Of a stretch of 64,000 nucleotides of DNA, positions 5,439-29,400 are shown piece by piece. Source of the stretch: Kofleriaceae bacterium (lineage in GTDB: Bacteria; Myxococcota_A; Polyangia; Haliangiales; Haliangiaceae); contig JBGARE010000001.1 of the NCBI GenBank assembly GCA_044230415.1, positions 433,195 to 497,194 of the forward strand. Direction: 5' to 3'. How positions within the stretch are numbered: the first letter of the stretch is position 1; the number at the start of each line of letters is the position of its first letter. A program made the position numbers and the translations under genes. The notes under the pieces are model-generated. The model did not search any database and was not told where the DNA came from. It worked only from the letters and a program-made list of their open reading frames with translations.

Positions 5439-6413
5439 CTACTTCGTCAGGACGAGGTAGGCGAGGACCGCGATCGCACCGACGAGGATCGCGATCAGCA
5501 CGAACACGAGCGCGTTGGACTTCGACGGTGCGGCGATGCGCGGATCCATCGGCGCCTGCGCGGCGAAGCCGAAGCTGTTGCTCGACGGCGACGAGCTCGG
5601 TCCCGACGAGAAGCCGGGCGGACGCGATCCACTACCAGGACCCGTCGGCGGCTTCGAGCCGAGCTGCGGACGGCTCGGGGGCTTGAGGTTCGAGCCGCTG
5701 CCGGTGCTGCCCGGATTGCTGCCGGGACCGCTGCCATGCTTCGCGAGCACCGATGCGGGCTGCGTGCTCGTGCGCTGGATCGAAGGCAGCGATGGAACGC
5801 TCGGCTTGGATCCGCCGGAGAGGTTCGGCTGGCTCGCGCGCGAGCGGACCTTCTTGCCGCCGTTGTTGTCGCCGTTGGATCCGCGACCGAGGTCGCGCAT
5901 CGCACCGTTGATCTTGTCGGGCTCGGCGAGCTTCTTCTGGTTCGAGAGGAACGCGAAGTAGCTATCCGGCATGTCGTCGAAGTCCATGACGAGATCGCAC
6001 TCGTCACAGCGACACGTGGGCGGCTCGTGTGGCGGCGGACCCATGTCCGTTGCCTCGACGAGCAGGACCTTCTCCTCGTCGCACTCCGGGCAGAAGTACG
6101 GAACGTAGAAGCTCTTGACGACGCCGTTGCCGGTGAAGTTGTTGACGAGGTTGATCTGCGCGACGATCGCCGGCGAGCACTCGACGAGAACCGAGCGCGT
6201 GCCGTTCGTCTCGAGCTTCGAGAGCCAGTTCACCCAGTCGCGAACGCCGCACGAGTTGATGCGCTCGATCTCGCCGAGATCGATCACGGCTGTTCCCGTC
6301 GGAATCTTGTCGACGAGATCCGCGAGCTCGTTGTCCTCGTCGATAACACCGCCGAGCTTCACGTAGCTCACGTCACCGCGGTGTTGCACCGATGCTTGGA
6401 ACTTCTGGCTCAT
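5439..6413 (-). CDS. STAS-domain protein with a Cys-rich zinc-ribbon-like segment, a Pro/Ser-rich linker and a C-terminal transmembrane anchor
   Basis: The N-terminal 110 aa ([20 protein letters not shown]...[21 protein letters not shown]...[10 protein letters not shown]) resemble an anti-sigma-antagonist/STAS fold. This is followed by CPECD...CRCDECD, a long P/S/G-rich linker and the C-terminal hydrophobic helix [21 protein letters not shown]. Confidence 0.6.
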
Positions 6414-12589: not shown

Positions 12590-12833
12590 TCGCTCGACGA
12601 GGACCTCGGCATCCGCGACTTCGAGGTTGCGCGTGTCCTCCGCGAGATCCGCATCGTCGACAACGGACGCAATAGGCACGACGTCCGTACGCCCTGCTGC
12701 TGGAGCAACCGGGACGCGCGGCAACGGCGGCGGCTTGGTCCCCGGCCGTCGGATCGGTGGCGGATCCGCCATGCGACTGGCGATCGTAGCAGGGCTGACG
12801 TCAAAGGGGCCAGCTCGTGTATCCTTCTCCGCG

Positions 12834-13712
12834 ATGAGGCTCGGTCGTGCGATCTGCGTCAGCCTCGACGAAGGAGTATGTCGGGTAGTCGCCGATGCCC
12901 TGACGTCCGCGGGCCTGACAGTCGAGCACACTACTTCTATACCTGCCGACGTCACCGGCGCCGTCGCTGTCATCGTCGATCGCGCCACTCGGCTGGCCGC
13001 TCCGACCGTCCTGCGCGGCCTGTCCGTTCCGGTGGTTGTCGTCGGAGATGACCTCGACGACGACGGCCTCATCACCCTCATGCTCGAGGGTCCGGTCAGC
13101 CATCTCGTCCGCGATCCAGGTGATCCCCAGCTCCAGATCACGTCCGAAAAGCTCGCCACCGGCGACATGTTCGGTCTCGAGAAGTACGTGTCCCCGGGCG
13201 TCACCGTGGGAGAGCGGCTGATCAACACCGACTCGGACAAACGCCATGCCATCGACGAGGTCTGCGCCTGGGCCGAGGCCGTGGGCGCCCGGCGCCCCAT
13301 CGTCGCTCGCATCTCGTCGGTCGTCGACGAGCTCGTCATGAATGCACTCCGCGAGTCCGATGGAGACCTACGCCGTCGCGCCCGAGGCGCGGTCCTTCGC
13401 TGGGCCAAGGACGACGGCACGATCGCCATCTCCGTCGGCGATCGCTTCGGCACGCTGCGCCAACACGATGTCCTCGATCACGTCCGCCGGGCGCGCACCG
13501 AAAAGGGTCGTCCCCAATCTCCCGCCGAATCGCAAGGCGCGGGCCTCGGTCTCTATTTGGTGCTCGCCAACGTCGCGTCGCTGATCGTCAACGTCACGCC
13601 GGGCGAGCAGACCGAGGTCGTGTGTCTGTTCGATCTCGCCGCGCCGTCGAAGCGGGGAGCGATCGGCAGCGGAGTTCGCTCGCTGCACGTGTTCCAGATG
13701 GTCGGCACCTAG
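12834..13712 (+). CDS. GHKL-type ATPase-like protein (anti-sigma-factor/HATPase_c-like) with an N-terminal receiver-like domain
   Basis: The N-terminus (ICVSLDEG...VAVIVD...VVVVGDDLDDDGLITLMLEG) looks like a degenerate receiver. The C-terminus carries the G-rich ATP-lid motifs DELVMNAL...GTIAISVGDRFG...GAGLGLYLV typical of HATPase_c_2. I chose the start MRLGRAI... at 12834 over the ATG at 12771 to avoid overlapping divergent start codons. Confidence 0.55.
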   Translation: MRLGRAICVSLDEGVCRVVADALTSAGLTVEHTTSIPADVTGAVAVIVDRATRLAAPTVLRGLSVPVVVVGDDLDDDGLITLMLEGPVSHLVRDPGDPQLQITSEKLATGDMFGLEKYVSPGVTVGERLINTDSDKRHAIDEVCAWAEAVGARRPIVARISSVVDELVMNALRESDGDLRRRARGAVLRWAKDDGTIAISVGDRFGTLRQHDVLDHVRRARTEKGRPQSPAESQGAGLGLYLVLANVASLIVNVTPGEQTEVVCLFDLAAPSKRGAIGSGVRSLHVFQMVGT

Positions 13713-14128
13713 CTATTCGTTCGTTCGCGGCTCCCACTGTCCGTGGACTTTGCTCGCTCCTTCGCGATCTCCTCGGCGACGATGTCGGGGAACGCGCGGG
13801 TATCGATCGGCTTCGCGATGTAGGCGTTGCAGCCCGCTGCGAGCGCCGCTTCCATGTCGCCCTTCATCGCATTCGCCGTGACCGCGATGATCACGAGATC
13901 GGCGTACCGCGGGTCGCGACGCAGTTGGCGTGCGAACGAGAGCCCATCCATCCCGGGCAAGCTGATGTCGAGGAGGAGACACGCGAACGTCTTGCTCGCG
14001 AGGATCGGCGCTGCTTCTTCGGCCGAGGTCGCGCTGTCGACCTGGTAGCCACGCGCGGCGAGCACCACGGTCAAAAGCTTCACGTTCATTTCGGCGTCAT
14101 CGACAACGAGCAAGCGCTCTCTCTGCAT
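13709..14128 (-). CDS. Single-domain response regulator (CheY-like receiver)
   Basis: MQRERLLVVDDAEMNVKLLTVVLAARGYQV...LLDISLPGMDGLSFARQLR...IIAVTANAMKGD...NAYIAKPID carries the canonical receiver acidic pocket, the phosphoacceptor Asp in LLDISLPGMDG, and a conserved Lys. It converges on the previous gene with a 4-nt overlap. Confidence 0.8.
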   Translation of the reverse strand: MQRERLLVVDDAEMNVKLLTVVLAARGYQVDSATSAEEAAPILASKTFACLLLDISLPGMDGLSFARQLRRDPRYADLVIIAVTANAMKGDMEAALAAGCNAYIAKPIDTRAFPDIVAEEIAKERAKSTDSGSRERTNS

Positions 14129-14268
14129 CAGACTCGCTCCTTGCAAACTCGAAGAGAGGCGCGGGCGTTGCTGACGAACACCTCGTCAGCGCGACACGTA
14201 ACGCATCGGAGCAGAATCGCCCGTCGGAACTGAGCGTGGGAGTTAGCTCACGGGTAGTTAACGCCGAT

Positions 14269-15531
14269 TTAACGTGTCGGGTGCCGCAATACGCTGCACC
14301 CGATCACTACGAGCGTCGCTCCACCGACGAGTGCGACTCCCTCGATCGGTAATGTCTGACGGAGTGTCGCGAACAGCCCCGGTGCGAGAACGAAGATCGT
14401 CCACCATCCGACGATCCACGCGAGCTTCGCGCGACGTCGCGCAGCAGTGGAGATCGGTAGTGACTGCGAGAGTCGGATCAGCTCGATCGGTGGCCGATGC
14501 AGCCGTCCACCGACGGCGATTCCGTATGCTGTCATCGTCACGAGTGTCGCGACGAGCCACGGCATCGGATCGACGGGCTGCTTGAAGCCGATGATCGCGA
14601 GCACGAGGAACGCGAGCGCACCGAGCGCGAACGCCATCGGATAACGACGGCGCATCAGCCGCGCGTCCTTGGAGTACGCGAGCGCTGCATCGCCGATCAG
14701 CGCGGCGATCAGTCGCTCGATTCCCGTCGGGGGACGGATCTCCAACGTCGCGAGTCGCTGGCGATCGAGCGCGGACACGTCACGTAGGATCGTTCCCATC
14801 ACGCGCGGCGTGCCGCTGCGCGTCGCGACGATCGCGAGGATGGAGACCCCGACGAGGATCCCGAGCGTGATCGCGGGTGGCGCCGACGGTGTGCCGCCCG
14901 TGAGCCACGACGTCAGGAGCAGGATCGCGACGAACACACCGGTGGACGCGAAGCCGGGCAGGGCGCCGAGGAGCGCGGTGTTCGGCGTCGGTGGCTTGGC
15001 CGTCGCATCGACGCCGGTGGCCGTGCGCAGCTGCGCGACGGCTTCGGAGGCACTGAGCGCGACGAGCTGCGCGCCGAACAGCGCGACCGCGGGGATCAGC
15101 AACGCGGCGGTGACACCGAGTGCTCCGCCGAGAGCGAGGTGCCGCACCGCGAGATCCACGCTGTGATCGAACAGCGGAGCGGCTCCGATCGCGACGATCA
15201 GCGTCGTGGCGATCGCGGATCGCACGCACCGATACAGCGCCGCCGCGAGCAACGCTTCGCCTTCGATCGGAAGCTGCGCGAGGAGCGCCGCGTCCGCGCG
15301 CCAGTACAGGTGGAACGGCACGCGCATGAACGTGATCATGAATGCGACGCACGTACCCGCCAGCCACGCGTGACTACCGGCGTCGTACGACGCGTGCGCG
15401 CGCCACGCGACCCATCCGGCGAACGCGGCACCGAGGGCAGCGACGATCGCGAGTGGTCGCGTGAAGACGGAGCTACTGCGGCGCTCGTACAGATTCGACC
15501 AGCGAACGAGGTCGCGGCCCGCGATCGCCAT
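14269..15531 (-). CDS. Polytopic membrane protein, probable ABC-2-type permease partner of the upstream ABC ATPase
   Basis: About 420 aa with at least 10 hydrophobic helices. Its ATG overlaps the stop of the ABC ATPase gene at 15531, indicating an operon with translational coupling. Confidence 0.65.
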   Translation of the reverse strand: MAIAGRDLVRWSNLYERRSSSVFTRPLAIVAALGAAFAGWVAWRAHASYDAGSHAWLAGTCVAFMITFMRVPFHLYWRADAALLAQLPIEGEALLAAALYRCVRSAIATTLIVAIGAAPLFDHSVDLAVRHLALGGALGVTAALLIPAVALFGAQLVALSASEAVAQLRTATGVDATAKPPTPNTALLGALPGFASTGVFVAILLLTSWLTGGTPSAPPAITLGILVGVSILAIVATRSGTPRVMGTILRDVSALDRQRLATLEIRPPTGIERLIAALIGDAALAYSKDARLMRRRYPMAFALGALAFLVLAIIGFKQPVDPMPWLVATLVTMTAYGIAVGGRLHRPPIELIRLSQSLPISTAARRRAKLAWIVGWWTIFVLAPGLFATLRQTLPIEGVALVGGATLVVIGCSVLRHPTR

Positions 15532-16256
15532 TACGTCGGGCCCTCGTCGGCGATCAGCGAGACGTAGAGATCCTCGACGGCAGTCGGGCCTTTCGCGAGG
15601 AGCTCGCTAACCTCGGCGCCGCGCTTGTCGGCGACGAGCTTGCCCTTGTCCATGATCAAGATGCGATCGCACATGCGCTCGGCCACGCCGAGCAGGTGCG
15701 TGGACATCAGCACTGCTGCGCCGCGATCAGCCGCACCTCGCAACGCTGTGCGTGCGGAGCGCGACGCGTGGGGATCGAGACCGTTGAGCGTCTCGTCGAG
15801 GAGGATCAGCTCCACGGGACCGACGAGCGCGGCCGCGAGCCCGACACGCTGGCGCATGCCGAACGACAGCTCGCGGCAGGGGCGCTGCGTGATCTTTGCG
15901 AGCCCGAGGTCACCGAGGATCGCCGCCGCGGCCGCCTCGTCGCTGCCGCGCGCTTGCGCGACGAACGTGACGTGCTCGAGCACGGTGAAGAACTCGTACA
16001 GCGCGGGTGGCTGATCCGCGAAGCCGACTCTGGCGCGAGCGGATCGCGGCGCGGTCGCGAGATCCTGTCCACCGACGGTGATCGTGCCCGTGGTCGGGAC
16101 GATCGAGCCCGCCATCGCGGACAACGTGGTGCTCTTGCCCGCGCCGTTGGGCCCGAGCATCAGCGCGATTTGCTTTGGCTCCAGCTCGAACGAGAGGTTG
16201 TCCACCGCGACGCGCTTGCCGTAGTGAATCGTGAGCCCGGCGACCTTGGCGATCAC
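15531..16256 (-). CDS. ABC transporter ATP-binding protein
   Basis: Walker A GPNGAGKST, Q-loop, ABC signature LSFGMRQRVGLAAAL, Walker B ILLDETLNGLD and an H-loop are all present. The length of 241 aa is typical. Confidence 0.9.
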   Translation of the reverse strand: MIAKVAGLTIHYGKRVAVDNLSFELEPKQIALMLGPNGAGKSTTLSAMAGSIVPTTGTITVGGQDLATAPRSARARVGFADQPPALYEFFTVLEHVTFVAQARGSDEAAAAAILGDLGLAKITQRPCRELSFGMRQRVGLAAALVGPVELILLDETLNGLDPHASRSARTALRGAADRGAAVLMSTHLLGVAERMCDRILIMDKGKLVADKRGAEVSELLAKGPTAVEDLYVSLIADEGPT

Positions 16257-17572
16257 AGCCCCGTGTATACGACGACGTAGAGCACTTTGGCCTCACTCCG
16301 CGGCGGCGCGATCGTTCGCAGCGAGATTTGTTGCGGGCCCTCCTTGGTCGGCTCGGACGCGGTCTGATATGCGAGCGTCCAGTTCTGTCCCCGATACAGG
16401 TGCTCGCGCAGGACCACCTCGACGGCGTACGCGCGGGTGTTCTTGATCGTGAGCACGAACTCCTCGACGACGCGGCGGTTGTCCTCGTCGTACGACAGCT
16501 CCCGGCGCTCGCGTGTACCGGTGACGCCCTCCGCCGTGCCGAGGGCGATCGTATCGACGGCGGCGACGCGCGTGGCGGCATCGAACAGCCGCGATTCGCC
16601 GAGCACGGCGAGCGTGCCATCCGGGCGGCGCTCGAGGAGGCGCACGGGGCCCGCGGGCAACCCCTCGGTCGAGGCGTGCGGGCGGACCACCTCGAAGCTC
16701 TCGGTCACCCGCGGTGACGCTCGCTCCATGCCGAGGGATGCATCGATGATCGGGCGTGCGCCGCTGTTGTCGAGCTTCGTGCCGATCGGATCGTAGACGA
16801 GCACGGAGCGCATCGCGCGCGGCAGATCGCCGGGCAGGAGCTCGATGCGAGTCTCGCCATTGGTGATCACGAGATCGCCGAGGACGCGCGGAGTCGCCGT
16901 CGGTGTGGTGCTCGGTGCGCCACCGGTCAGCGTGGTGCCGACGTTCTCGGCGATCTGCCCACGCCACGCGCCGAGCTCGGAGTCCACGACCTGCGTCCGC
17001 GCGGCGGGCAGGGGCGCCGTCAGCGTGTTGCGGATCGCGATCGCCCCGCGCAGCGTGACCCGCGTGCGCGCCGGCGTCGTGGTCATCGTGTACGCCGCAT
17101 CCCACGTGAGCCGATCGGTGACGAACGCGATCGCGAGACTGTAGCGGCCGGCCTTCGGTGCACTCACGTCGAACGTGACCGTCGTCGGTCCGCTCGGAGG
17201 CGGTGCGGTCTTCTGCGGCGCTTCCGCGTCCTTCGTCGCCTCCTCGAGATCGAGTTCCTTGTCGAATTCGTCGTCGATAGACGTCTCGGGCTGGGGCACG
17301 ACGGGCACGTCGGTGATCGGTCCGCGTAGCTCGCCGACGGTGAGCACGCCGCGATCCACGATCGCGACATCGTCGAGCGAAACTCCCTCGGGCACCACGT
17401 ACGAGACGGTGGCGTGACTCGCCTCGGGGACCACGACATCGATGCGATGCTTGATCAGCGCGCGATCGCGATACAGCGTGATCTCGTCGGCGGCGACGGC
17501 CGTACCGCTCGGCAATGCGCGCGTATGACCGCCGCACGCGGCGAGCGCGACGACGATCGCGAGCAACTTCAC
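16253..17572 (-). CDS. DUF4139-like (MuiA/TIGR02231-like) lipoprotein, paralogue 2
   Basis: The refined start is a GTG giving VKLLAIVVALAACGG, a lipoprotein signal with lipobox LAAC. This GTG overlaps the upstream gene's TGA as GTGA. The body resembles the upstream paralogue, with LTWDAAY/MQWTADY W-x-A-x-Y motifs and a C-terminal ...YVVVYTGL/...YTLVYTW beta-strand tail. The 518-aa track ORF has an Arg-rich artefactual N-terminal extension. Confidence 0.7.
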   Translation of the reverse strand: MKLLAIVVALAACGGHTRALPSGTAVAADEITLYRDRALIKHRIDVVVPEASHATVSYVVPEGVSLDDVAIVDRGVLTVGELRGPITDVPVVPQPETSIDDEFDKELDLEEATKDAEAPQKTAPPPSGPTTVTFDVSAPKAGRYSLAIAFVTDRLTWDAAYTMTTTPARTRVTLRGAIAIRNTLTAPLPAARTQVVDSELGAWRGQIAENVGTTLTGGAPSTTPTATPRVLGDLVITNGETRIELLPGDLPRAMRSVLVYDPIGTKLDNSGARPIIDASLGMERASPRVTESFEVVRPHASTEGLPAGPVRLLERRPDGTLAVLGESRLFDAATRVAAVDTIALGTAEGVTGTRERRELSYDEDNRRVVEEFVLTIKNTRAYAVEVVLREHLYRGQNWTLAYQTASEPTKEGPQQISLRTIAPPRSEAKVLYVVVYTGL

Positions 17573-18924
17573 CACGTGTACACCAGCGTGTAGCCCACGG
17601 TGCGTTTGCCGCCGGGCGGAAGGGCGACGCGATACTCGAACGTCTGCGCGCCACCTTTCGCGCTCTTCTGATCTTCGGCGTCGATGTGGAACAGCGTCCA
17701 TCGCCAGGCGAACTCGCGGACGACGACATCGATCGCGCGCTTGCTCTTGTTCTCGACCTTGACCTCGATGCGCTCGGTCAGCGTGCGCGCCTTCTCGTCG
17801 TTGGTGCACGTCACTGCCTTGCGATCACCGACGACGTCCGTGCTGCGATCGAGTCGGATCCGCGCGGCCCCCGCACGCGATCGCAGCGGCTCCTCGGACA
17901 CGACCTCGACGCGATCGCCCTTGCGCTTGAACATCCGGACACGGCCCGGAGGCAATGGTTCCTTCGTCGGGACCTCGACCTCGACGGCGATCTCCGCGGT
18001 GCCCGGTCCGGTGTTCGCGTTGTACTGTGCGCAGTCCGTGTTCGCGTAGCCTTGAAAGCCGGCGGACAGATCGGGAATCGCTTCGTACAGCACGACGGTC
18101 TTCGCCGTCGCCTTTCGCTGAGCGGCGACTAGCGGCACTTGCACTTGCTGCCCGGCGAGGAGCTTCACGGGTTGCGCGATCGCGTAGCGCGCCGGGGACT
18201 TGCCGCCGTCGACGAGCGTGACGTCCGCGGACTCGAACGACGCGCCGGTCGTGTTCTTGATCGAGGCCCACGCCGAGAAATCGAGCGACGTGCCGGCCTC
18301 GTCGAGCACCGCGAGATAATCGGCGGTCCACTGCATGCCCGTCGCGCGATACGACAGCTCGAGCTGGTGCTTGCCGGGCGTCTTCGTCGCGAGGCGCAAT
18401 GCGAGGCTGCCGCGATCGGTGCCCGGCGGAAGGCGCAGGTCTTGTACGTAGTCGCGTCGCAGGACTTGCAGGCGTCGCTGTTCGCCGGCGCCGACCTCGA
18501 TGACGATCGCCTGCGCGTCGACGGATCGCAGGACGCCGCTGACGTCGCCCTTGGGCGTGATCGCGGTGACTGACTCGCCGACATGGCGCGCGATGAGCGC
18601 CGTCGGCGTCGTCGCGCCGGGCGTGAATCGCTGCTCGACGAGCGTGGTCGTCGCGTCGGTGAGATCGCGGATCTGCACGCTCGCCGGATCCAAGGTCGAC
18701 GCGACACCGGCGATTCGCACGTCTCCGGAGGCGGCAACATCGACCTCGGTCTGTTGCGTGATCATCGCTCCCGAGGGCGGTGCGAACCCACCATAGGTGA
18801 GACCGCCATAGGCCGACGCGGCGGGCGCTTGCACCGCCCACACGGTGATCTTCGTGCGCGAGGAGCCCGCCGACGCCACTGCCATGGTCGCGATGGCCAC
18901 GAGGCTTACGAAGGCGACCCGCAT
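17569..18924 (-). CDS. DUF4139-like secreted protein, paralogue 1
   Basis: ATG start with the signal peptide MRVAFVSLVAIATMAVASAG. The 451-aa body has the same domain order as the downstream paralogue: LRSVDAQAIVIEVG...QWTADYLAVLDEAG...TLVYTW. The family assignment is from memory of the DUF4139/DUF4140 architecture and has not been searched. Confidence 0.7.
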   Translation of the reverse strand: MRVAFVSLVAIATMAVASAGSSRTKITVWAVQAPAASAYGGLTYGGFAPPSGAMITQQTEVDVAASGDVRIAGVASTLDPASVQIRDLTDATTTLVEQRFTPGATTPTALIARHVGESVTAITPKGDVSGVLRSVDAQAIVIEVGAGEQRRLQVLRRDYVQDLRLPPGTDRGSLALRLATKTPGKHQLELSYRATGMQWTADYLAVLDEAGTSLDFSAWASIKNTTGASFESADVTLVDGGKSPARYAIAQPVKLLAGQQVQVPLVAAQRKATAKTVVLYEAIPDLSAGFQGYANTDCAQYNANTGPGTAEIAVEVEVPTKEPLPPGRVRMFKRKGDRVEVVSEEPLRSRAGAARIRLDRSTDVVGDRKAVTCTNDEKARTLTERIEVKVENKSKRAIDVVVREFAWRWTLFHIDAEDQKSAKGGAQTFEYRVALPPGGKRTVGYTLVYTW

Positions 18925-18994
18925 TTCTCGATCATACGCTGTCGTACTTCGATAAGCCCGCGACGACCCAAACAGGCGGGCGGACCGCTTCTCT

Positions 18995-21900
18995 GTGTAT
19001 GATTCGTCCGTGGCGGTCGCGACCTATCCGGGCACGGTGTCGCCGTTGCGGGGGCTAGATCCTTTCGGGGAGGCCGAACGCGACGTGTGGCACGGTCGCG
19101 AGACCGAGCGCGACGAGATCGCGAAGATGGTCACGGCCGATCAGTTCCGCTCGGGGCTCGTCTATGGGGAACCCGGTGTCGGCAAGACGTCGCTGGTTCG
19201 CGCGGGCCTGATCCCGTACCTGCGCGATCACGGCATCGTCGCGCTCGCGTGTGAAGATCTGACCCAGCCCGCAGCGAGCTTCGCGCAGGGGCTGTCGGCG
19301 TTCGGAATCCAGCCGAACCCGAACGAGCTGCCGGCGCTGTTCGCGCAGCGCGCGGTGACGAACGCCGTCGCGGGGCAACAGTTCGTGTTCGTCGTCGACG
19401 ATATCGATCTGCTATGCCAGGACGAGCGCGCCGTCGGCGAGCTCAGCGATCTCTATCAGCGCGTGGTCTCGCGCGGCGCGGGTCGTGCGCGATTCCTGTT
19501 CGTCTGCGCGAGCGAGCGACAGCACTTGCTCGGTGCGCTCGAGCGGCGGACGGGCTCGCTGTTCCCGCCATCGTCGCGCTACGAGCTGCAGCGCATCTCG
19601 GTCAACGCCGCGAGCGGCATCTTCGATCGCATGCTGTCGCTGTCGGGCGTCGCGGCGGATCCGGAGCTCGCCGACGCGGTCGTGCAAGGCATCTCGCACG
19701 GCCAGCCGCTCCTCGCTGCGGATCTGCAGATCGCCGGCATGGCGATGCGCGATCTGCGGATCTCGTCGAAGACCGCGCTCGAAAAAGCGGGTGGACCCGG
19801 CGAGCTCGAGTCCGAGTGGCTGCACGAAGCCTGTCGCGCGACCGGAAACGAACGCTCGGGCCTTCGCTTGTGCGCGGAGATCGCCTCGACGACGGCACCA
19901 CGCACCGCGGAGTCGATCGTTCGCAAGGTCAACCTCGATCCCGCGTACACGAGCTCCGCGCTCGTCGTGCTCGAGCAGCGCGGCGTGATCAGCCGCGCGG
20001 ACGCGACGGGAAACACGTGGATGCTGCGCCACGAGGTGCTGACGCCACGCGTGCGCGAGCTGACCGCGCCGGCGCGTGCGGCTGCGCGGCGCGGGTTCGA
20101 TCTGCTCGGCAGCAAGACGCAGGGCAACCAGCGCCTCAAGCTGCGCGAGCTGCGCGCGCTGCGCACCGAGGGCATCGCGGCGGTCACGCCCGAGGAGCAA
20201 GCGGTCGTCGATCGCAGCAAGCGCTATTACATGATGCTCGCGGGCGCGATCGCGGCGGCGCCGATCGTGATCCTGATCTTCATCTGGATCGCGATGCGCG
20301 GGAAGGTCTACTTCGACCTCGAGCCGCACGCCGGTGGTGATCGCATCGTCGTGCGCTACGGACGCGCCGGACTGTCGAGCTTCCACTGGTTGCCGGGCGG
20401 ATTCGGCGACGAGATCGCCGACACGGGGCTCACGCGCCCGATGTCCGCGGCCGAGGCGTGGAAGAAGATCGATGGCCACGACATCGGCGGCAGCGACGAC
20501 GATTGGGACACGCAGCTGCGCTCGTTGATGGCGCCGCAACTCGGTGGGCTCGTCGATTACGCGACCACGGGCAACGAGAAGGCGCTCGATGCGCTCGCGA
20601 AGGCGGCAAAGGATCCCGAGGATCTCGCCGAGCTGCTCACGTCGTTGCGGCCGATCGCGCGCGGCACCGCGAGCGAGGTCGCGCTCGTCGAGAGCGCGCT
20701 CAAGACGCAGTCACCGGCGGTGCAGCGTGCAGCGGTCGCCGTCGCCGGTGCGGCGGCGGGACGCGGCACGGACGCGTATCAAGACAAGCTCAGCGCGGCG
20801 CTGACGTCCTCGGATCCCGAGCTGCGGCGCATCGCCTTTGGTGCGGTGCGCGGACTCGGCGAGCGCGGTGCGGCGCTGTTCGCGAAGGCGCTCGAATCGG
20901 GACCGGATCCCGAGATCAAGCGCGAGCTGATGGTCGAGGTCTCGACGGCGTCGGTCCCCACCGCCGACGACGGCGAGGGCCCATCGGTCGCGACCATGAT
21001 CGGCGTACTGGGTGAACCCGACGCGACGCCCGCGATGCGCGATCGCGCGAAGACGCAGATCAAGGGTGCGCTCGCGAAGAATGCGGATGCAGTCGCCGTC
21101 GAGCTCGTGAAGCTCGTCGCATCGGACAAAGCGCCGGTCGAAGCCCGCGTGTACGCGATCGGCCTGTTGCGCGAGATGGATCCGCTGCCCAAGTCGGCGG
21201 ACCTCGTCGAGAGCGCGCGCACCGCGTTCCAGTCGCGCTCGCCCGCGGTTCGCGCAGCCGCATTGCCGCTCTACGCGAAGGCGGATCCCGAACGCGCCGG
21301 TGGTGACCTCTCGAACATGCTCGAGGACAAGAAGCTCGAGAAGCCGCTGCGCATCGCCGCCGCGCTCGCATGGGGCGAGGTCGCGGCCACGAACAAGATG
21401 GCGGCGCAGAACGCGCTCGATCGCATGCTTACCGACGAGGACTCGGACGTGCGGGCCGCCGCGGCGGAGGCCGCTGGCAAGGCGGGGCGCGCGTACCAAG
21501 AGAAGCTCGTGAAGATGGCGAAGGGCGAGAACTACAACGTCCGTATCGGCGCCGCGCGTGGGTTGGCCGTCAGCGCCGAGAGTGGTGGCAACCCGAGCGT
21601 CGCCGTCGGCGGCATCTTCCAGCTCTGGCGCGAGAAGGGTCGCCCGCGCCGCGAGGCGGCGAAGGTCTACGCGCAGCTCGCGAAGAAGAAGCCCGCGATC
21701 GTGCTCGAGTACCTGTCCGCGGCCGCGCGCACGCCCGAGGACGAGGGCCTGCATCCGATCGGTGTCGAGGGTCTGTGCAACGCGGCCCTCGCCGGAAGCG
21801 CGGGTGCGCGCGCCCAGCTCGCGAAGTCCACCGACGATCCATCCGTCGAGGTACGCAAGCTCGTCATGGCGTGCGTCGCGGACGGTCCCGATCCCGCGAA

Positions 21901-22924
21901 GAACGGCGTGGTGATCGCGGCGAAGCTCGTCGGGGATTCGAGCGCCGAGATCCGCGCCGATGCCGCGCGCGTCCTCGCGCTGTCCGCGGCGAAGGGCAAC
22001 AAGGCCGTGGGGGAGTCGCTCGTGAAGATGCTCGACGATTCGGACCGCGATGTTCGCGTGATCGCGATCCGCGCCGTCGGTGGCCTCGGCGCCGACGCCC
22101 CGAAGACCGCGCAGACCACGATGTCCAAGATGTTCGAGCGCGGCGACGAAGCCGAGAAGCTCGCGCTCCTCCGCGCGGCTCGCCAGATCGGCGCATCGGA
22201 TCTCATCGGCCTCGCGGTCGCCGACTCGTCGCCGATCGTACGCGTCGAAGCCGTCGATGCCGCGCTGTCCTCGGGCCAGCGCGCGAAAGAGACGCTCTCC
22301 GCCGCGCTCGCCGATCCCGATCCGCAGGTGCGCAAGGCCGCCCTCGAGCGCCTCGCCGCGCAGAAGGACAAGCTCGAGCCCGCGGTCATCGAGCGCACCC
22401 TCGCACTCGCCGTGCGCGATCCGAACCCGGAGCTCAGCCAGCTCGCGCTGACCACCGTCGCCCGCGTCGCGCCGAAGGAAGCCGTCGCCGCGCGCCTCAC
22501 GCGCTCGCTCGGCTCTCGCGCGGAACGCGAGCGTGCCCAAGCCGCCGCAGCAGCGATCGGTCTCGTCGAGCGCGACGCCGCGTTGACCTCGCAGCTCCTC
22601 TCGCCGCTGCTGTCGGACCCGTCGCACGACGTTCGCGTCGCCATGCTGCCCGCGCTCGCGGCTGCCTACGCGAAGACCAACGAGCCCGAGAAGCTCGCCG
22701 GTCTGCTCCGTGATTCCGAGACCAACGCGATGCGCCGCATCGTCGTCGCGGCTGCGTTCATCACGCTCGCGAAGACAGATGCCGGCCGCGCCGCCACGGA
22801 GTCGTCGCTCGGCAAGGTCGCGAAGAACGGACCGCCGATGGCGCGTCAGATCGCGAAGCTTGTCGGTGGCCTGATCGGCGGCAAAGCCGACGGGATGGCG
22901 TTCCTTCAGGAACTGATCCCGTAG
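18995..22924 (+). CDS. STAND-like P-loop NTPase with a transmembrane segment and a long C-terminal HEAT-repeat (PBS-lyase-type) array, 1309 aa
   Basis: Walker [23 protein letters not shown] lies near the N-terminus and a Walker B-like [11 protein letters not shown] follows. A hydrophobic helix ([24 protein letters not shown]) sits around residue 410. After it come at least 12 HEAT-like repeats with [12 protein letters not shown] spacing, for example [49 protein letters not shown] and [15 protein letters not shown]. The start codon is GTG. The gene is divergent from the DUF4139 operon, 70 bp away. Confidence 0.75.
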
Positions 22925-22984: not shown

Positions 22985-25639
22985 CTATCCCGCCGTCTGC
23001 AGGCCCGCGGCGATGCCACCGATCGTCGTGAAGATAATGCGCGCGAGGCGGTCGGCATCGCCGCCCGCGCGCCGGCGACGAATCGCCTCGATCTGCGAAT
23101 GCGACAGGATATCGAGCGTCGGGTTGCGCCGTTCGATCGAGCCGGCGAGGTAGGGGCGCGTCGCGAGCGGCGTCGTGATGCCGAGCGTGTCGCTCAGCGC
23201 GGCGCGGGTGCGCGCGTGTTCGGCTTCGATCATCGCGAAGATGCGGCGCGCGTCGTCGTCGGCCAATCGCGCGTACTCGCGAGCAACATCGATATCGGAG
23301 CGCACCAACGACAGCTCGCAGTTGCGAATCAGCGCGCGGAACGCCTTCGATCGGCCGCACAGCTCGCGGACTCCGTCGGCGCCGAGCTCCTTCGCGAGCG
23401 CACCGACCGCGGTGCCGACGCCGAACCAGCCCGGGATGCCGTGCCGCGATTGCGTCCACGAGAACACCCACGGGATCGCGCGCAGCGTGTCGAGCGTGAT
23501 GCCCTTGCCGCGGGACGCGGGACGCGAGCCGAGCGGGAGGTGCGCGACGTCTTCGATCGGCGTGGCGGCCACGGTGTAGCGAACGAGGCGATCCTCGTCG
23601 CGCGTGAGCTCGAGGTACGCATCGCGTGCGGCATCGGCGGCGCGATGGAGCAGGCCCTCGTCGCGCACGTCGTCCTCGGTCGGGTGAGGATCGCTGCTCG
23701 CGGCGAGCACGGCGGACAACATCAGCTCGATGTCGCGCTCGGCGATCTCGGGCTGCGCGTACCGTGCGGTGACGGTCTCACCCTGCTCTGTCACACGCAG
23801 GCGGCCGCGAACGGCGGACGCGGGCTGCGCTCGGATCGCTTCGCTCTCGGGGCCGCCGCCGCGACCGAGGGCGCCGCCGCGGCCATGGAACACGGTAAGC
23901 GTCACACCGGCGCGCTCGGCCGCCGATGCGAGTGCGATCTGCGCGTCGCGAAGCGCGATCGTCGAAGCGACATAGCCGACCTGCTTGCCGGAATCGGAGT
24001 AGCCGACCATCACCTCGAGCTCGCCGTCGATCTCGTTGCGGAGCGTCTCCTGTGCGAGGACATCGTTCGCGATCGCACCGGCGCGCTCGAGATCCTCGAG
24101 CTGTTCGAGGAGCGGAACGGGATGCACTTCGCCGGGGGCGAGGCCTGCGGCTCGCGCGAGGAACACGACCTCGAGCAGATCGGACACTTCGCGCGTGAAG
24201 CTGACCACGTAGCGCTCGCACGCACGTGGCCCGAGCTCGCGGCGCGCACGGCCGACGACCTCGAGGGTCTCGAGCAGCTCTTGGCCCTCGGGAGAAACAC
24301 CGTCCCAGTCGCGCTCCGGCGTGATCGGACGTGCGAGCACTTCGCCGAGCATCGCGCGCCGACCGGCCTCGTCGCGCTCGAGGTAGCCGATCCGTCCGCC
24401 GCGGGCGAGTAGCTCCGCGACGACGCGATCGTGTACGCCCGAGTGCTGGCGCACGTCGAGCGAGGCGAGGTGAAAGCCGAACACGTCGACGCGGCGAAGC
24501 GAATCGCGCAGCTCTTGATCCGTGATCGCGCCGAAGCCCGCGGCGCGCAGCGTGCGATCGAGGAGCTCGAGCTCGTCCTGGTAGACCTCGGCGTCGATGT
24601 AGCCTTCGTCGCGGCGTTCGAGCGTCGCGCGGAGTCGCGCCTGGATGTACCAGAGCTTCTCGCGCCATGGCTCGTGCACCGTTCGCACGCGAGCATGCGC
24701 CGCGACCTCGGGCAGCCGCGCGCGATCGAGCTCGAGCGATGCTTCCAGCTCTTCGATCGAACCGCGCACGCGCAGCGACGACAGCGACAGCGTGCGTCCG
24801 AGGACGACGACGTCGTCGAGGTAGCGCCCGAGGATCGTCGCGCGATGCCGAGCGAACGCTCCGCGCGTGACCGCGGCGGTGACGTTCGGGTTGCCATCGC
24901 GATCGCCGCCGACCCACGTGCCCCAGCGGAAGAACGAGGGCAGCTTCCAGCTGCTGTTCGGGAACCGTGCGGACAGGCGATCCTCGAGAGTGCGATAGAT
25001 CCGCGGCGTCACGTCGAGTAGCGAGCGGCGGAACACGTCGAGCGTGTTCTCGACCTCGTCGAGCGGAGACGGCCGGCGAGCGCGTGCGTCTTCCGTCGCG
25101 TGCAGTGCGAGCACTTCGGCGGCGAGCATCGTGGTGGTGGAGCCGGTCGCGCGATCGAGCTGATCGAGGATCTGAGAGATGCGCCCGAGGTGATCGAGCG
25201 ACGAGCGCCGTCGCGCCTCCGTCGGGTGCGCCGTGATCACGGGCATGACGAGCGCGCGATCGAACAAGCCGCGCAGATCGCCCTCCGTGGCGCCCACGTC
25301 GATCAACGCATCGACCGATGCGGCGAGGCCGTCCGGTGCGTCCGTGCCGCGCTCGCGCAACACGCGTAGGCGATGCCGCTCCTCGGCGATGTTCATGAGG
25401 TGACACCACAGCGCGTACGCGCGTGCGCTCTCGTCGAGCTCGTCCTCCGTCAGGTGGCTGATCTGCTCGCCGAAGGCGCGCCTGCCGCCGGCGAGATCAC
25501 CGCCGCGAAGCTCGATCGCCGTCGCTCCGAGGCGGCGGCACAGCTCGAGCGATCCGGGACCGCCGAGCGCTTTGACCGCGTGCCACAGCGCCGACGAGAG
25601 TCGCAGGATGTCGTGATCGAGCAGGGTCGGATCATGCAC
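22985..25639 (-). CDS. ppc: Phosphoenolpyruvate carboxylase
   Basis: The 884-aa length and the hallmark motifs VFHGRGGALGRGGGP and FSWTQSRHGIPGWFGVG are present, together with the N-terminal regulatory region and the characteristic C-terminal ...TIGGIAAGLQTAG. Confidence 0.95.
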   Translation of the reverse strand: MHDPTLLDHDILRLSSALWHAVKALGGPGSLELCRRLGATAIELRGGDLAGGRRAFGEQISHLTEDELDESARAYALWCHLMNIAEERHRLRVLRERGTDAPDGLAASVDALIDVGATEGDLRGLFDRALVMPVITAHPTEARRRSSLDHLGRISQILDQLDRATGSTTTMLAAEVLALHATEDARARRPSPLDEVENTLDVFRRSLLDVTPRIYRTLEDRLSARFPNSSWKLPSFFRWGTWVGGDRDGNPNVTAAVTRGAFARHRATILGRYLDDVVVLGRTLSLSSLRVRGSIEELEASLELDRARLPEVAAHARVRTVHEPWREKLWYIQARLRATLERRDEGYIDAEVYQDELELLDRTLRAAGFGAITDQELRDSLRRVDVFGFHLASLDVRQHSGVHDRVVAELLARGGRIGYLERDEAGRRAMLGEVLARPITPERDWDGVSPEGQELLETLEVVGRARRELGPRACERYVVSFTREVSDLLEVVFLARAAGLAPGEVHPVPLLEQLEDLERAGAIANDVLAQETLRNEIDGELEVMVGYSDSGKQVGYVASTIALRDAQIALASAAERAGVTLTVFHGRGGALGRGGGPESEAIRAQPASAVRGRLRVTEQGETVTARYAQPEIAERDIELMLSAVLAASSDPHPTEDDVRDEGLLHRAADAARDAYLELTRDEDRLVRYTVAATPIEDVAHLPLGSRPASRGKGITLDTLRAIPWVFSWTQSRHGIPGWFGVGTAVGALAKELGADGVRELCGRSKAFRALIRNCELSLVRSDIDVAREYARLADDDARRIFAMIEAEHARTRAALSDTLGITTPLATRPYLAGSIERRNPTLDILSHSQIEAIRRRRAGGDADRLARIIFTTIGGIAAGLQTAG

Positions 25640-25680: not shown

Positions 25681-28600
25681 TCAGCCAAACCGACCGCTCG
25701 GAAAGAACACTTCGGTCGCTCTCTCTGGGGCAACCATCCCCGCCGTGCGCGCGCGCTCGTCACCCGCTGCGATCAGCTGTGCGCCCTCGGTGCCTCCGAG
25801 CTCCTCGCCGAGTCTGCGCTCGAGGCTGAACATGGTCACCGCGATGCCACGCGCGTTCGACTCGGAGATCGCCGCGCGCAACGCCCTGACCCGTGCATCG
25901 CGATCGTCGCCGAGCATCGCGATCGCGGCGCGCAGCGACGTGGCGGCGGTGAGCGCGCCGGGGAAGTCGAGCTTCGCGAGCTTGTCCGCCTGTGCTGACG
26001 CCGCGCGAAGATGCGCGAGCGCCTCGCTCGGCGCGCCGCGATGGCGTGCGGCGATCGCGAGTCCCGCGAGATACGTGCCGTACGCGTGCAGCCATTCGAG
26101 GCGCAGGATCGGGATGCGACCGACGAGCGAGCGCTGCATGCGCCGGCACTCCTCGCCCAGCTCGGACTCGAGCGTCGCGAATGCATTCGTGTAGAGCGCG
26201 ATGCGAATGCGACTCCACAGTCCCCACGCACGTTGGTTGCCGAACGAGTCCTTGCCCGGCAGCCAGGACGCGAGCGCATCGAGGACATCGACGCGCGCCG
26301 TGTCCGCACGATCCGCGATCACGTGGCGCATCGCGAACCGCACGCGAAGCGTGACGTCCTGGAACAGATCGCCTTTGCGCTTCGCGAGCTGGATCTGCGC
26401 GGTCGCCCGCTCGGCCATCTCGTTGTAGCGACCGAGCATCTGGAGCGACGACAGCGCGAAGTGCAGCGCGATGTCCGTCTCCCATCCCGGACCGCGCCCC
26501 GCGCGATACCACTCGTGCTCGAGGCGCGTTGCACTCTCGAGCGCACGCACGAAGTCGTTGTCGAGGACAAACACCTTCGCCGTCTGCGCGAGCTCCGCGT
26601 ACCACGCGGACACGGGCATCGCCGCGGCGTCGGCGGCGCGTCGCGTGGCGGCCATCAAGCGATCCGCGCGATCGTGGCGACCGAGGACCGCAGCGCCGAT
26701 CGTCGCCGAGGCCAGCGCGCGCGCGATCTGCTGTGGCGACCCGTACTCGAGTGCGAGGCGCGCCGCGCGGCCCGAGAAGTACGCACCGAGGAGCGTGTCG
26801 ACCATGCCGAGGCCCGCGCCGATCGACCAGCAGATGTCGGCATGGATGGACCGCGGATCGATCTCGGTGCGCGGCTTCCAATCGAGCGCGCGCCGCATGC
26901 GCAGCTGGTTCCACACGATGCCGGCGATCGTGCGCACGCGCGTCGTCGGTAGCGACATGTCCGCGCGCGCGAGGACGGCCCGTGTGGTCTCGAGTCCGCG
27001 ATCGAGCCGCCCCGCCATCAGGAACCGCTCGGCCGCACGCCGGAGGAGATCGAGCTGCTGCGGAGAATCGGCGGACTCGAGGTTCGCGGCTTCGAGGTAG
27101 CACTCGGCAGCGTCCGCCGTACGGCCGTCGTTCGCGAGTGCATCTGCGAGCGCGACGAGCAGCGGGCCGCGACGCTCGGGCTGCGGCGTGGCCGCGAGCG
27201 CGCGCTGGTACAGCTCGGCGGCGCGGCCGAACGCGAATGCGTCGAGCGCGGCCTTCGCGGCGGCGACAACGTAGTGCGCCGCGCGCTTGAGATCGCCGGC
27301 GGACTCGAACCGCTCGAGCAGCGCCGCCGCGGACGCGCCCATCTCCTCGAGCCCCCGCGCGATCGCGCCGTGCAGCCGACGCTGATCGGCATCGGCCACG
27401 TGCGCGAGGATCGCCTGCCGGATCCGATCGTGAAACGGCTCGATCGCATCCTGTGGTCGCGAACCATGGACACGCACGAGCTGCTCGTCGACGAGAGCCG
27501 TCACGTGGCGTTCCGCGGCATCGACGATTCCCGCCGCAGCGCATGCGACGTGGCGTGGAACCGGTGAGCCCGCGACCGCGACCGCCGCGAGGAGCTCGCG
27601 CGTGGCTGGATCGAGCGCGAGCGTGCGCTCCCAGATCACGTCCTCGAGGCGCGATGCTTTCAACGCCGTCCTGCGATGCCGCACGAGCTCGCGCAGGAAC
27701 AGCGGGTGGCCGCGGCTCTCGACGACGATCTGCGCGGTCTCCACGTCCGGATCCGATGCGACGAGCCGCACGAGCTGCGCGGCCGCGGCGGCGCTCAGTC
27801 CGCTGAGAGCGATCGTCCGCGTGTGCGGTGCAGCGGCGATCCGCTCCGCGATCTGTGTTCCTTCGCGCGGGCGCTTCGTCGCGATGATGCAGATCGGCGC
27901 GCCGCTACCGGCGAGCTCCTCGAGGAGCAACGTGCTGTCCGCGTCGGCCCACTGCACGTCGTCGATCGCGATCACCACGGGGCGGCGCTCGCCGATCCGC
28001 ACGAACAGGTGTCGTAGCGCTGCGAACGCGCGTTCGCGAACATCCGATCCGAAGGCGAGGCCCTCGTCGTCCTCGCGATCGGCGAGCGCGGGCACGGCAC
28101 GCAGCGCGGTGAACACGGCGAGCAAGTCGCTGACCTGGCCCGGCACGACGCGCTCGACGGAGGCCGGTGTACGCGACATCAGATAGCGCGCGAGATCATC
28201 GACCACACCGTCGACGGCGTTGAACGGCACGCGTTCGCGCTCGTGACAGCGGCCGCGCAGCACGACGAGCCGCGGCTGCGCTGCCGACGCTTGCTCGAGA
28301 AAGCGATCGACGAGCACGCTCTTGCCGACACCCGACTCTCCCTCGACGAACACGCACGCGAGCTGTGTCCGGCTCGTGTCGAGGGCGGCAGCGAGCACCG
28401 CGAGCTCGTCTTCGCGGCCCACGAACGGCTGTCGCGGGATCTCGAGCGCGATCTCGTCCGCACCGGCGAGCATCGCGAGGATCTGCTGCTCGGTCGGACG
28501 CTGTCTCGGATCGGCGCTCAAGAGGTTCGTGCACAGCCATTCGAGATCCGCCGGGATCCCGGCGACGAGCGTGCTGGGCGAGGGAGCGGCGAGATGCTGC

Positions 28601-29400
28601 TTGAGCACCAGGAGCTCGTTGCCCGTGACGTCTCCAAACGGCGTGCGTCCGGTGAGCGCTTGGAACAACAGCACGCCGACGGCGTACCAATCGGCCGCGG
28701 GGGTGATCGCATCACCGCGCGCCTGCTCGGGGGCCATATACGTCACGGTGCCGATCACCGCTTCGTCGCGCGCAGCGGTCGCGTGCAGCTCGGCGACGGC
28801 GCCGAAATCGAGCAGCACCGCACGACCGCTCGCTTCGACGAGGATGTTCGATGGTTTCACGTCGCGATGGACGATGCCCGCCGCGTGCAGCGCCGAGAGT
28901 CCGCGCGCGAGACCGAGGAGCGCGACGCGCAGGCGATCGAGCTCGCACCGCGGAGCGGGCGCGCGGTCGGCGGCGTACACCGGTGGGGTCACCACCGTCG
29001 AGTCGGCGGGTCCGTCGAGCTTCGACGTCTCCTCCGATCGAGACTCGACGACGCGGCTCGACGTGGCGACGCTCTGGGGCGAGCTCGAGCGCACCCAATC
29101 GACGAGGTTGTCACCGTGGAGGCGATCCATGGTGAAGAACCACGTGCCCGACGACTCGAACAGCTCGCCGAGCTGCACGAGGTTGGGATGCTTCACGTCG
29201 CGCAACATGCGGAACTCGGACTTGAAGCGCAGCACTGCATCGGGTGAGAGGCCACGCAGTGTCTTGAGCGCGACCTCGACGCCCCGCTCCTTGTCGTACG
29301 CGCGATAGACGACGCCCATTCCGCCGCGACCGAGGACATCGAGGACCTCGAATCGGCCGTCGATCATCGATGGGAGTCCGCTCGGATTCCCCTCATCCAC
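25681..29400 (-). CDS. Ser/Thr protein kinase fused to an AAA/P-loop ATPase and TPR-like repeats (STAND-type signalling kinase)
   Basis: The N-terminal Hanks kinase shows [29 protein letters not shown] and APE. A P-loop ([11 protein letters not shown]) with Walker B ([12 protein letters not shown]) follows, and the C-terminal half is helical and TPR-like. This architecture is typical of myxobacteria. Confidence 0.9.

Follow-up and report, generated by a model that had tools for sequence, protein, structure and literature searches.

Two DUF4139 paralogues encoded with a predicted ABC exporter and a divergent STAND-HEAT gene in a soil myxobacterium of the Kofleriaceae

A 64,000-nucleotide stretch of DNA from a soil myxobacterium of the family Kofleriaceae (Myxococcota, Polyangia, Haliangiales; GenBank assembly GCA_044230415.1, contig JBGARE010000001.1), referred to here as the window, has a G + C content of ~68% and carries a compact set of four co-directional open reading frames (ORFs) on its minus strand at 14269..18924. 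They encode two exported proteins related to the DUF4139 family, P1 and P2, an ATP-binding cassette (ABC) ATPase and a permease, and are flanked by a divergent gene for a STAND NTPase with HEAT repeats (STAND-HEAT). We suggest, with a probability of roughly 45%, that these genes specify an envelope-spanning export or relay module, in which a type V ABC exporter is accompanied by an accessory, fast-evolving pair of periplasmic and outer-membrane DUF4139 proteins. An original prediction for this stretch had suggested a cell-envelope assembly or export module, which is a reasonable inference. Proteins nearly identical to those of the window were traced to metagenome-assembled genomes (MAGs) of Kofleriaceae.

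Genetic organization of the cluster

The components of the cluster are as follows.

17569..18924, minus strand: P1, ATG start, 451 aa; DUF4140, Sm-like small barrel and DUF4139 regions, with a type I signal peptide.
16253..17572, minus strand: P2, 439 aa, lipoprotein paralogue of P1; GTG start in a GTGA that overlaps the P1 stop.
15531..16256, minus strand: ABC ATPase, 241 aa, a DrrA/ABCA-type nucleotide-binding domain (NBD); GTG start in a GTGA that overlaps the P2 stop.
14269..15531, minus strand: permease, 420 aa, ~10 predicted transmembrane helices, an orphan single chain; ATG start in a TAATG.
18925..18994, no strand assigned: divergent intergenic region of 70 bp between P1 and STAND-HEAT.
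18995..22924, plus strand: STAND-HEAT, 1309 aa, a single-pass transmembrane nSTAND1 NTPase with C-terminal HEAT repeats.

As judged from their sequence, the four minus-strand genes are predicted to form one translationally coupled operon, each adjacent pair of ORFs being overlapping. The tight packing of four co-directional genes, the GTGA overlap of P1 and P2, and the STAND-like neighbour with only 70 bp between divergent starts had all been described correctly in the original prediction, and two of its junctions need to be amended. The ATPase gene does not begin 0–3 nt beyond P2; it overlaps it by 4 nt in a GTGA. The ATPase and permease genes are joined by a TAATG, a 1-nt overlap, and not by an ATGA.

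Among orthologous loci the gap between P1 and STAND-HEAT is mostly 45–110 bp. A scan for promoters and terminators found nothing that exceeded shuffled expectation, and no minus-strand terminator inside the operon, which agrees with one transcript and is weak evidence for it. No match to Rfam, as would mark a riboswitch or leader RNA, was found across 13000..19500, a range that includes the intergenic region. In most of the aligned orthologous intergenic regions a TATGAT or TATGCT element lies 6–8 nt 5' of the P1 ATG. This element could be a -10 box, in which case the P1 mRNA would have no leader or almost none.

The DUF4139 paralogue pair

P1 and P2 share 24% identity over ~317 residues (BLASTP E = 2e-14), and comparison of their family profiles gives a probability of 99.5% in hhalign (E = 3e-22, 287 columns), with the P2 family aligning onto the DUF4139 region of the P1 family. 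Their N-terminal 130–170 residues are unaligned both in BLASTP and in the profile–profile comparison. The proposed paralogy is therefore borne out, and profile searches also detect the relationship to DUF4139. P1 matches the Pfam DUF4139 profile (PF13598) over positions 1–201 of 205 at 33.7 bits (E = 3.8e-8), above the gathering threshold of 31.8 bits; its match to DUF4140 (PF13600) is below threshold. P2 alone reaches 13.9 bits against DUF4139 (E = 0.044), which is under the gathering threshold. At the level of families, DUF4139 is matched at E <= 1 by all 35 P1 members (best 5.7e-14) and all 30 P2 members (best 9.9e-7), and DUF4140 by 30 of the 35 and 17 of the 30, respectively. From these profile matches, P2 is homologous to DUF4139, in divergent form. 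Against TIGR02231, the mucoidy inhibitor MuiA family, P1 scores 16.3 bits, far from the NCBIfam cutoff of 112.6, so that it is not a member of the MuiA family, and P2 has no match. No DUF4139 paralogues other than P1 and P2 were found in the window.

Both proteins carry export signals, as had been predicted, and these are kept in orthologues: a type I signal peptide in P1, and in P2 a lipobox in at least 85 of 119 orthologues, with an I-G-C variant in most of the others. The N-terminus of P2 in the window reads VKLLAIVVALAAC|GG. The residue that follows the lipobox cysteine in P2 orthologues is Gly or Ala. In Myxococcus xanthus, Lys at position +2 keeps lipoproteins in the inner membrane, and by this sorting rule the Gly or Ala at +2 suggests that P2 is probably anchored in the outer membrane. 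Two cysteines of P1, C298 and C373, are invariant, in keeping with its predicted export.

Two shared motifs had been proposed for the pair. The W-x-A-x-Y motif is present in both proteins, as WTADY in P1 and WDAAY in P2, whereas the proposed tail pattern, Y-x-V-x-Y-T-x-(L/W), fits only approximately the actual C-terminal tails, YTLVYTW in P1 and YVVVYTGL in P2. The C-terminus of each protein is an alternating hydrophobic strand, whose last residue is aromatic in most orthologues (YTW). A further motif is confined to P1, where residues 33–47, immediately after the signal peptide, hold an invariant Gly/Tyr-rich YGGLxYGG in a region predicted to be disordered (pLDDT < 50); it may be an interaction or strand-insertion motif.

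The AlphaFold2 model of P1 is all-beta (pLDDT 82), with a Sm-like small barrel in the middle of the protein. In part of the P1 family this region is independently recognized by Pfam as DUF2642 or RimP-SH3-like. A Foldseek search of the P1 model against the Protein Data Bank (PDB) returned nothing at E <= 1e-3. Its only full-length matches there were to Ost1/ribophorin I of the eukaryotic oligosaccharyltransferase, found with the 3Di alphabet at E 3e-3 and with a TM-score of ~0.12; these were rejected as too weak for an assignment, and are noted as a lead for a remote DUF4139 relationship.

Functional information for the family is sparse. MuiA of Pseudomonas aeruginosa belongs to the envelope-stress regulon of the extracytoplasmic function (ECF) sigma factor SbrI (PMC10418997). 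Within the literature searched, it is the only studied DUF4139 relative and the sole functional lead for the family. A DUF4139 protein is also reportedly mentioned in a proteomics paper on Tannerella vesicles.

The ABC ATPase and its orphan permease

The ATPase matches PF00005 (ABC_tran) at 100.6 bits and all of its motifs are intact, including Walker A (GPNGAGKST), the signature (LSFGMRQR), Walker B (LILLDE) and the H-loop (STH). Its best NCBIfam matches are DrrA, GldA and NodI. All fall under their equivalog cutoffs, and the ATPase thus cannot be given the name of a known transporter. Among solved NBDs, the nearest are those of ABCA4, ABCA7, ABCA1 and ABCA3 (E 1e-59 to 1e-47) and of Rv1218c.

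The permease has no match in Pfam or NCBIfam, the ABC-2 membrane models included, even at E <= 10, and a precomputed Pfam domain is found in 0 of 120 orthologues. The family is very small, with 183 clusters at 50% identity among 1.84 billion representatives. Its structural model, by comparison, resembles the transmembrane domains (TMDs) of type V transporters, namely CcmB, ABCG2, Rv1217c, PmtD, NosY, Wzm and KpsM. The model has ~10 transmembrane helices in two asymmetric halves of six and four, each preceded by an amphipathic helix (residues 5–19 and 270–296). Each half also holds an invariant L-P-(I) motif (residues 87–89 and 358–360), which precedes transmembrane helices 3 and 9, respectively, on the predicted cytoplasmic side. 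The motifs sit where coupling helices would be expected in the model if one chain serves two NBDs. An internal duplication of the permease was considered and rejected, since hhalign of the N-terminal half against the C-terminal half gives a probability of 0.2% and there is no detectable sequence repeat; the suggested pseudo-symmetry comes from the model and the two L-P-I motifs only. By analogy with Rv1217c, we infer that a single permease chain may supply the whole membrane domain and contact two copies of the ATPase. Taken together, the motifs and the model predict a catalytically intact, type V-like exporter.

The STAND-HEAT protein

The N-terminal part of STAND-HEAT is an nSTAND1 domain (PF20703, residues 17–206, E = 1.4e-15) with a Walker A motif, GEPGVGKT, and its C-terminal 870 residues contain many HEAT repeats (HEAT_2, E = 8.9e-23). 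No effector domain was found on the protein. Between the NTPase and the repeats, at residues ~414–440, lies a strongly hydrophobic helix that is present in every orthologue, including the one in the distant locus L046 (42% identity), and no second transmembrane candidate was found in the orthologues. As the NTPase must be cytoplasmic and there is a single transmembrane helix, the HEAT domain is most simply placed in the periplasm, and it is probably located there, where it would share a compartment with P1 and P2. As a rule, STAND NTPases are soluble proteins of the cytoplasm that act as switches in immunity or transcription, and a periplasmic HEAT array would be unusual for this class.

Conservation in Kofleriaceae and Haliangiales

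With one genome scanned for each species, 37 loci were recovered, labelled nearly always as MAGs of Kofleriaceae, Haliangiales, Myxococcales, Myxococcota or Deltaproteobacteria, with one Acidobacteriota. The order is the same in every sufficiently long locus: STAND-HEAT, divergent from P1, P2, the ABC ATPase and the permease. Overlapping junctions also recur, between P1 and P2 by 4 nt in 22 loci and by 1 nt in 11, between P2 and the ATPase by 4 nt in 29 of 36, and between the ATPase and the permease by 4 nt in 20 and by 1 nt in seven. In the 23 complete loci the median identity to the window is 71% for STAND-HEAT, 77% for the ATPase, 57% for the permease, and 52% for both P1 and P2, the DUF4139 pair being the fastest-evolving part. 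Orthologues of STAND-HEAT are 63–93% identical. The neighbourhood of the DUF4139 pair with the ABC genes, whose conservation had been put forward as a check on the original prediction, is kept together with the divergent STAND-HEAT gene across the Kofleriaceae and Haliangiales loci and extends to the distant locus L048.

Distant loci and the order of acquisition

Loci beyond this group were located through matches to the permease profile. They differ in which partners accompany the ABC pair, as listed here.

L048, G + C content 60%: STAND (54% identity) divergent from P1-like, P2-like, ABC and permease genes.
L047, G + C content 64%: STAND (48% identity) divergent from ABC and permease genes; no DUF4139.
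L046, G + C content 58%: STAND (42% identity) divergent from ABC and permease genes; no DUF4139.
L044, G + C content 67%: STAND divergent from ABC and permease genes; no DUF4139.
P0379 contig: STAND, one gene of 374 aa, ABC and permease genes.
L042, G + C content 38%: ABC and permease genes only.
L043, G + C content 72%: ABC and permease genes only.
L045 (Haliangium sp.), G + C content 71%: ABC and permease genes only.

The P1-like protein of L048 (30% identity) has a signal peptide and the P2-like protein (26% identity) has a lipobox. One permease homologue carries the label Haliangium sp., and nearly all of the members recovered come from uncultured Kofleriaceae MAGs. STAND-HEAT lies alongside in divergent orientation in every full-length locus, as it does in L044, L046, L047 and L048. 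Because the ABC pair occurs without DUF4139 genes in L044, L046 and L047, and without either partner in L042, L043 and L045, the exporter, contrary to the original proposal, does not serve the DUF4139 proteins exclusively; the same permease family and ATPase exist without them. On this comparison of gene content, the ABC pair is the oldest part of the cluster, STAND-HEAT accompanies it more constantly than any other gene, and the DUF4139 pair is an accessory module that was either inserted between STAND and ABC or lost several times.

Proposed function and alternatives

In the export or relay module that we favour, two copies of the DrrA/ABCA-type ATPase would act on one chain of the ~10-helix permease, and this exporter would extract or flip from the inner membrane an envelope component that is hydrophobic or lipid-linked. 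Cargo of this class is what type V exporters, and transporters of the ABCA-like NBD subfamily, usually handle. P1, as a soluble protein, and P2, as a lipoprotein, would receive the cargo or pass it on, or would scaffold its route to the outer membrane, following the logic of LolA/LolB or of the Lpt bridge with unrelated folds. STAND-HEAT, sitting at the membrane, would regulate the system in an NTP-dependent manner or provide a scaffold for it. The ABC pair has an ancient link to STAND-HEAT and a looser one to the giant TPR, RsbW-like and tail-anchored STAS proteins encoded nearby. The cargo class, the localization of P2, the topology of the HEAT domain and the physical contacts within the module are inferred. 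A fully specified version for Haliangiales-type myxobacteria, in which a single-chain type V ABC motor passes a lipidic envelope component to a soluble DUF4139 carrier and this passes it to its outer-membrane lipoprotein paralogue, the whole gated by a transmembrane STAND NTPase with a periplasmic HEAT sensor, seems distinctly unlikely as a complete description. If true, it would constitute a Lol/Lpt-like relay built from an unrelated fold and the first mechanistic role for DUF4139, as well as the first STAND switch acting across the inner membrane as housekeeping machinery and not in immunity.

Several observations weigh against an export or relay module that includes P1 and P2. The ABC pair is present in several lineages that lack DUF4139 genes, and the DUF4139 pair is dispensable there. 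The permease is predicted from its model to have only short periplasmic loops, which leaves P1 and P2 without an obvious place to dock. Among PDB structures P1 has no confident match that would suggest lipid binding, and a ligand cavity in P1 or P2 and contacts between the proteins are hypothetical. The periplasmic placement of the HEAT domain depends on one predicted transmembrane helix. In four Kofleriaceae lineages 0.5–2.3 kb of DNA separates the ABC and permease genes and breaks their otherwise kept overlap, which argues that strict coupling is not essential. These inserts are located as follows.

L019: 13373..15690.
L020: 13412..14913.
L021: 7554..8090.
L022: 13470..14970.

In three of the four the inserted ORFs, identified by eye from their translations, seem unrelated: a HipA-like toxin with its antitoxin, a possible FHA-domain protein, and an M18-like aminopeptidase.

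In one alternative the genes are co-expressed without any relay. P1 and P2 would then have a structural or envelope-stress role in the periplasm, as proposed for MuiA, would have nothing beyond a promoter in common with the ABC genes and would never touch the cargo, and the real partner of the exporter would be the signalling set of STAND-HEAT, TPR and STAS proteins. The occurrence of the ABC pair and STAND-HEAT without DUF4139 genes in L044, L046 and L047 speaks for this, as do the giant TPR and STAS genes that follow the permease even in L042 with its G + C content of 38%, the permease without a large periplasmic domain, and the membership of MuiA in an envelope-stress regulon. Mere sharing of a promoter is less easily reconciled with the stop–start overlap of P2 and the ATPase, retained in 29 of 36 loci, or with the position of the DUF4139 pair between STAND and ABC wherever it is present, including L048 where identity has fallen to 26–30%; such persistence usually reflects stoichiometric co-production of interacting products. 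We consider co-expression alone to be rather unlikely, if a serious contender. Another suggestion, that P1 and/or P2 are themselves the cargo, released to the surface or to outer-membrane vesicles by the ABC system after Sec export, could draw on the alternating hydrophobic strand and usual terminal aromatic residue at both C-termini, and on the DUF4139 protein reportedly mentioned in Tannerella vesicle proteomics. It merits very little credence, given that other lineages have the ABC pair and lack P1 and P2, and that type V exporters with ~10 transmembrane helices and short loops are not known to move folded proteins of 45 kDa.

Two other readings begin from the partners of the DUF4139 pair. 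Most descriptions of nSTAND1 domains concern predicted conflict systems of multicellular bacteria, and the cluster might be a conflict or immunity system in which STAND-HEAT senses invasion or kin, the ABC pair is an ABC-2-type exporter of toxins or bacteriocins or an immunity pump, and P1 and P2 act in surface recognition or immunity. The ATPase does resemble lantibiotic-protection and DrrA-type pumps, P1 and P2 are the fastest-evolving components, and a protein with an eCIS_core domain is encoded in the window at 457..4488. However, the STAND protein has no effector domain, and a search for defence systems with PADLOC gave no specific family match for any component beyond generic ATPase similarity. 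STAND-HEAT is also conserved (63–93% identity) and keeps the same chromosomal position, beside phosphoenolpyruvate (PEP) carboxylase, HemF and QueF, across lineages, and such stable housekeeping synteny is unlike mobile, patchy defence islands; a conflict function is accordingly quite improbable. For a system related to CcmAB, in which the exporter would deliver a tetrapyrrole such as haem or a porphyrin to periplasmic acceptors, one can cite the score of 98.7 bits of the ATPase on the CcmA model and the recurrence of coproporphyrinogen oxidase as a neighbour in L042, L043, L047 and P0379. That score is nevertheless below the CcmA cutoff of 131.6, and DrrA, GldA and NodI score higher. The loci contain no CcmC-like WWD domain and no CcmC, CcmD or CcmE, the permease has no sequence match to CcmB, other type V exporters nearly equal CcmB in the structural match, and HemF is absent from the Kofleriaceae loci. 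Tetrapyrrole handling is thus highly improbable.

Relation to known systems

The cluster is made of parts of known kinds, namely the DUF4139 superfamily, type V ABC exporters and nSTAND1 proteins. What is undescribed is the arrangement of a paralogue pair with ABC genes, the family of orphan, single-chain permeases, and a STAND-HEAT partner that spans the membrane; no paper describing this cluster was found in a literature search, where DUF4139 was mentioned only rarely and briefly. In common with other DUF4139/DUF4140 proteins, P1 exceeds the DUF4139 threshold and both proteins are predicted to be exported to the envelope, to which MuiA is linked through envelope stress. They differ in the Sm-like barrel in the middle of P1 and in forming a pair, one soluble and one a lipoprotein, that is joined to an ABC operon. 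The exporter shares its NBD subfamily and its predicted TMD fold with type V exporters (CcmAB, Rv1217c-Rv1218c, PmtCD, NosFY, Wzm-Wzt and KpsMT) and, as in Rv1217c, one polypeptide appears to supply the whole TMD. Unlike these exporters, its permease matches no ABC-2 model, has halves that look asymmetric, of about 6 + 4 helices, and belongs to a tiny, lineage-restricted family.

A parallel in overall design, offered as an analogy only, is with the Lol (LolCDE-LolA-LolB) and Lpt (LptB2FGC-LptA-LptDE) systems, which also combine an ABC motor in the inner membrane with a soluble periplasmic protein and an outer-membrane lipoprotein. In LolA and LolB, as in P1 and P2, the soluble protein and the lipoprotein share one fold. 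A comparable gene set is present here, with a signal peptide on one paralogue, a lipobox on the other and an operon with an ABC motor, and P2 is probably sorted to the outer membrane. However, the folds are unrelated, and the permease, in its model, does not have the large periplasmic docking domain of LolC/E, LptF/G or MacB. Another partial likeness is to MlaFEDB, in which the STAS protein MlaB sits on the ABC ATPase; here a conserved STAS gene lies near an ABC pump with periplasmic and lipoprotein partners. There is no MCE protein, and the STAS protein differs from MlaB in being tail-anchored, in having a zinc ribbon, in being encoded several genes away, and in its sub-threshold STAS match. 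With the nSTAND1 NTPases of conflict systems, STAND-HEAT shares the N-terminal PF20703 domain and C-terminal repeats as a putative sensor, and it differs from them in having a transmembrane helix and no effector, in its conservation and synteny, and in being paired with an ABC exporter.

DUF4139/DUF4140 proteins are widespread and lack an assigned mechanism, and no similar solved structure was found in our PDB searches. The conserved coupling of a soluble protein and a lipoprotein to an ABC motor leads to a testable hypothesis, that of a periplasmic carrier and an outer-membrane acceptor. The feature with least precedent is a transmembrane nSTAND1 protein with a probably periplasmic HEAT array as the constant partner of an orphan ABC exporter in several lineages of Myxococcota. 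A membrane-spanning STAND protein tied to transport would widen the known roles of this class.

Neighbouring genes

Beyond the permease, on its 3' side and after a variable stretch, lie genes for an RsbW-like HATPase_c_2 protein, a giant TPR protein and a STAS protein. These and a response regulator are placed in the window as follows.

13709..14146, minus strand: stand-alone response regulator receiver (PF00072, E = 1.5e-24).
~12800..13712, plus strand: HATPase_c_2-like protein (RsbW/SpoIIAB-type kinase-like); weak Pfam match (E = 1.2e-3), start approximate.
6527..~12700, minus strand: giant TPR protein, ~2050 aa; many TPR families match, start approximate.
5439..6413, minus strand: tail-anchored STAS protein, 324 aa; STAS-like, with a Cys-rich zinc ribbon, a long S/P/G-rich linker and a C-terminal transmembrane helix.

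The HATPase_c_2-like gene is found 3' of the permease in 24 related loci (56–88% identity), and the giant TPR gene, which is divergent from it, in Kofleriaceae loci, in L046 (48% over 1661 aa) and in L042 (26% over 1278 aa); both are kept in this position in most related loci. The STAS gene always follows the giant TPR gene in the Kofleriaceae loci, L046 and L042, and its product is 88–95% identical in Kofleriaceae, 67% in L046 and 48% in L042. The zinc ribbon reads CPECDEE...CRCDECD, and the match to TIGR00377 (anti-sigma factor antagonist), at E = 1e-4, is below the cutoff. Together, the TPR, HATPase_c_2 and STAS proteins look like a partner-switching set tied to the ABC/STAND cluster. The response regulator gene adjoins the permease gene only in L005, lies 4.4 kb from it in L001 and is missing in most loci; being found only in the closest relatives, it is not part of the core. 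A conserved sixth gene directly 3' of the permease was also considered and rejected, the genes there varying between lineages.

On the other side of the cluster, STAND-HEAT is flanked by genes for PEP carboxylase (22985..25639, minus strand) and for a Ser/Thr kinase fused to an AAA_16 ATPase (25681..29400, minus strand). The position of PEP carboxylase is kept in L001, L009, L016, L017, L022 and L025, a sign that this place on the chromosome is stable. In L042, L043, L047 and P0379 the ABC pair, with or without STAND-HEAT, adjoins genes for coproporphyrinogen oxidase and QueF, and an ABC1/UbiB kinase is likewise a neighbour in L042, L047 and P0379, and not in L043. NrdR adjoins the ABC pair in L043, L044 and the P0472 contig, together with a radical SAM gene in L043 and L044. 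The distant lineages thus show a housekeeping neighbourhood that recurs. Finally, the 1343-aa ORF at 457..4488 on the minus strand has an N-terminal eCIS_core domain (PF13699, DUF4157-type, E = 5.6e-12), and its product may be toxin-like or associated with contractile injection.

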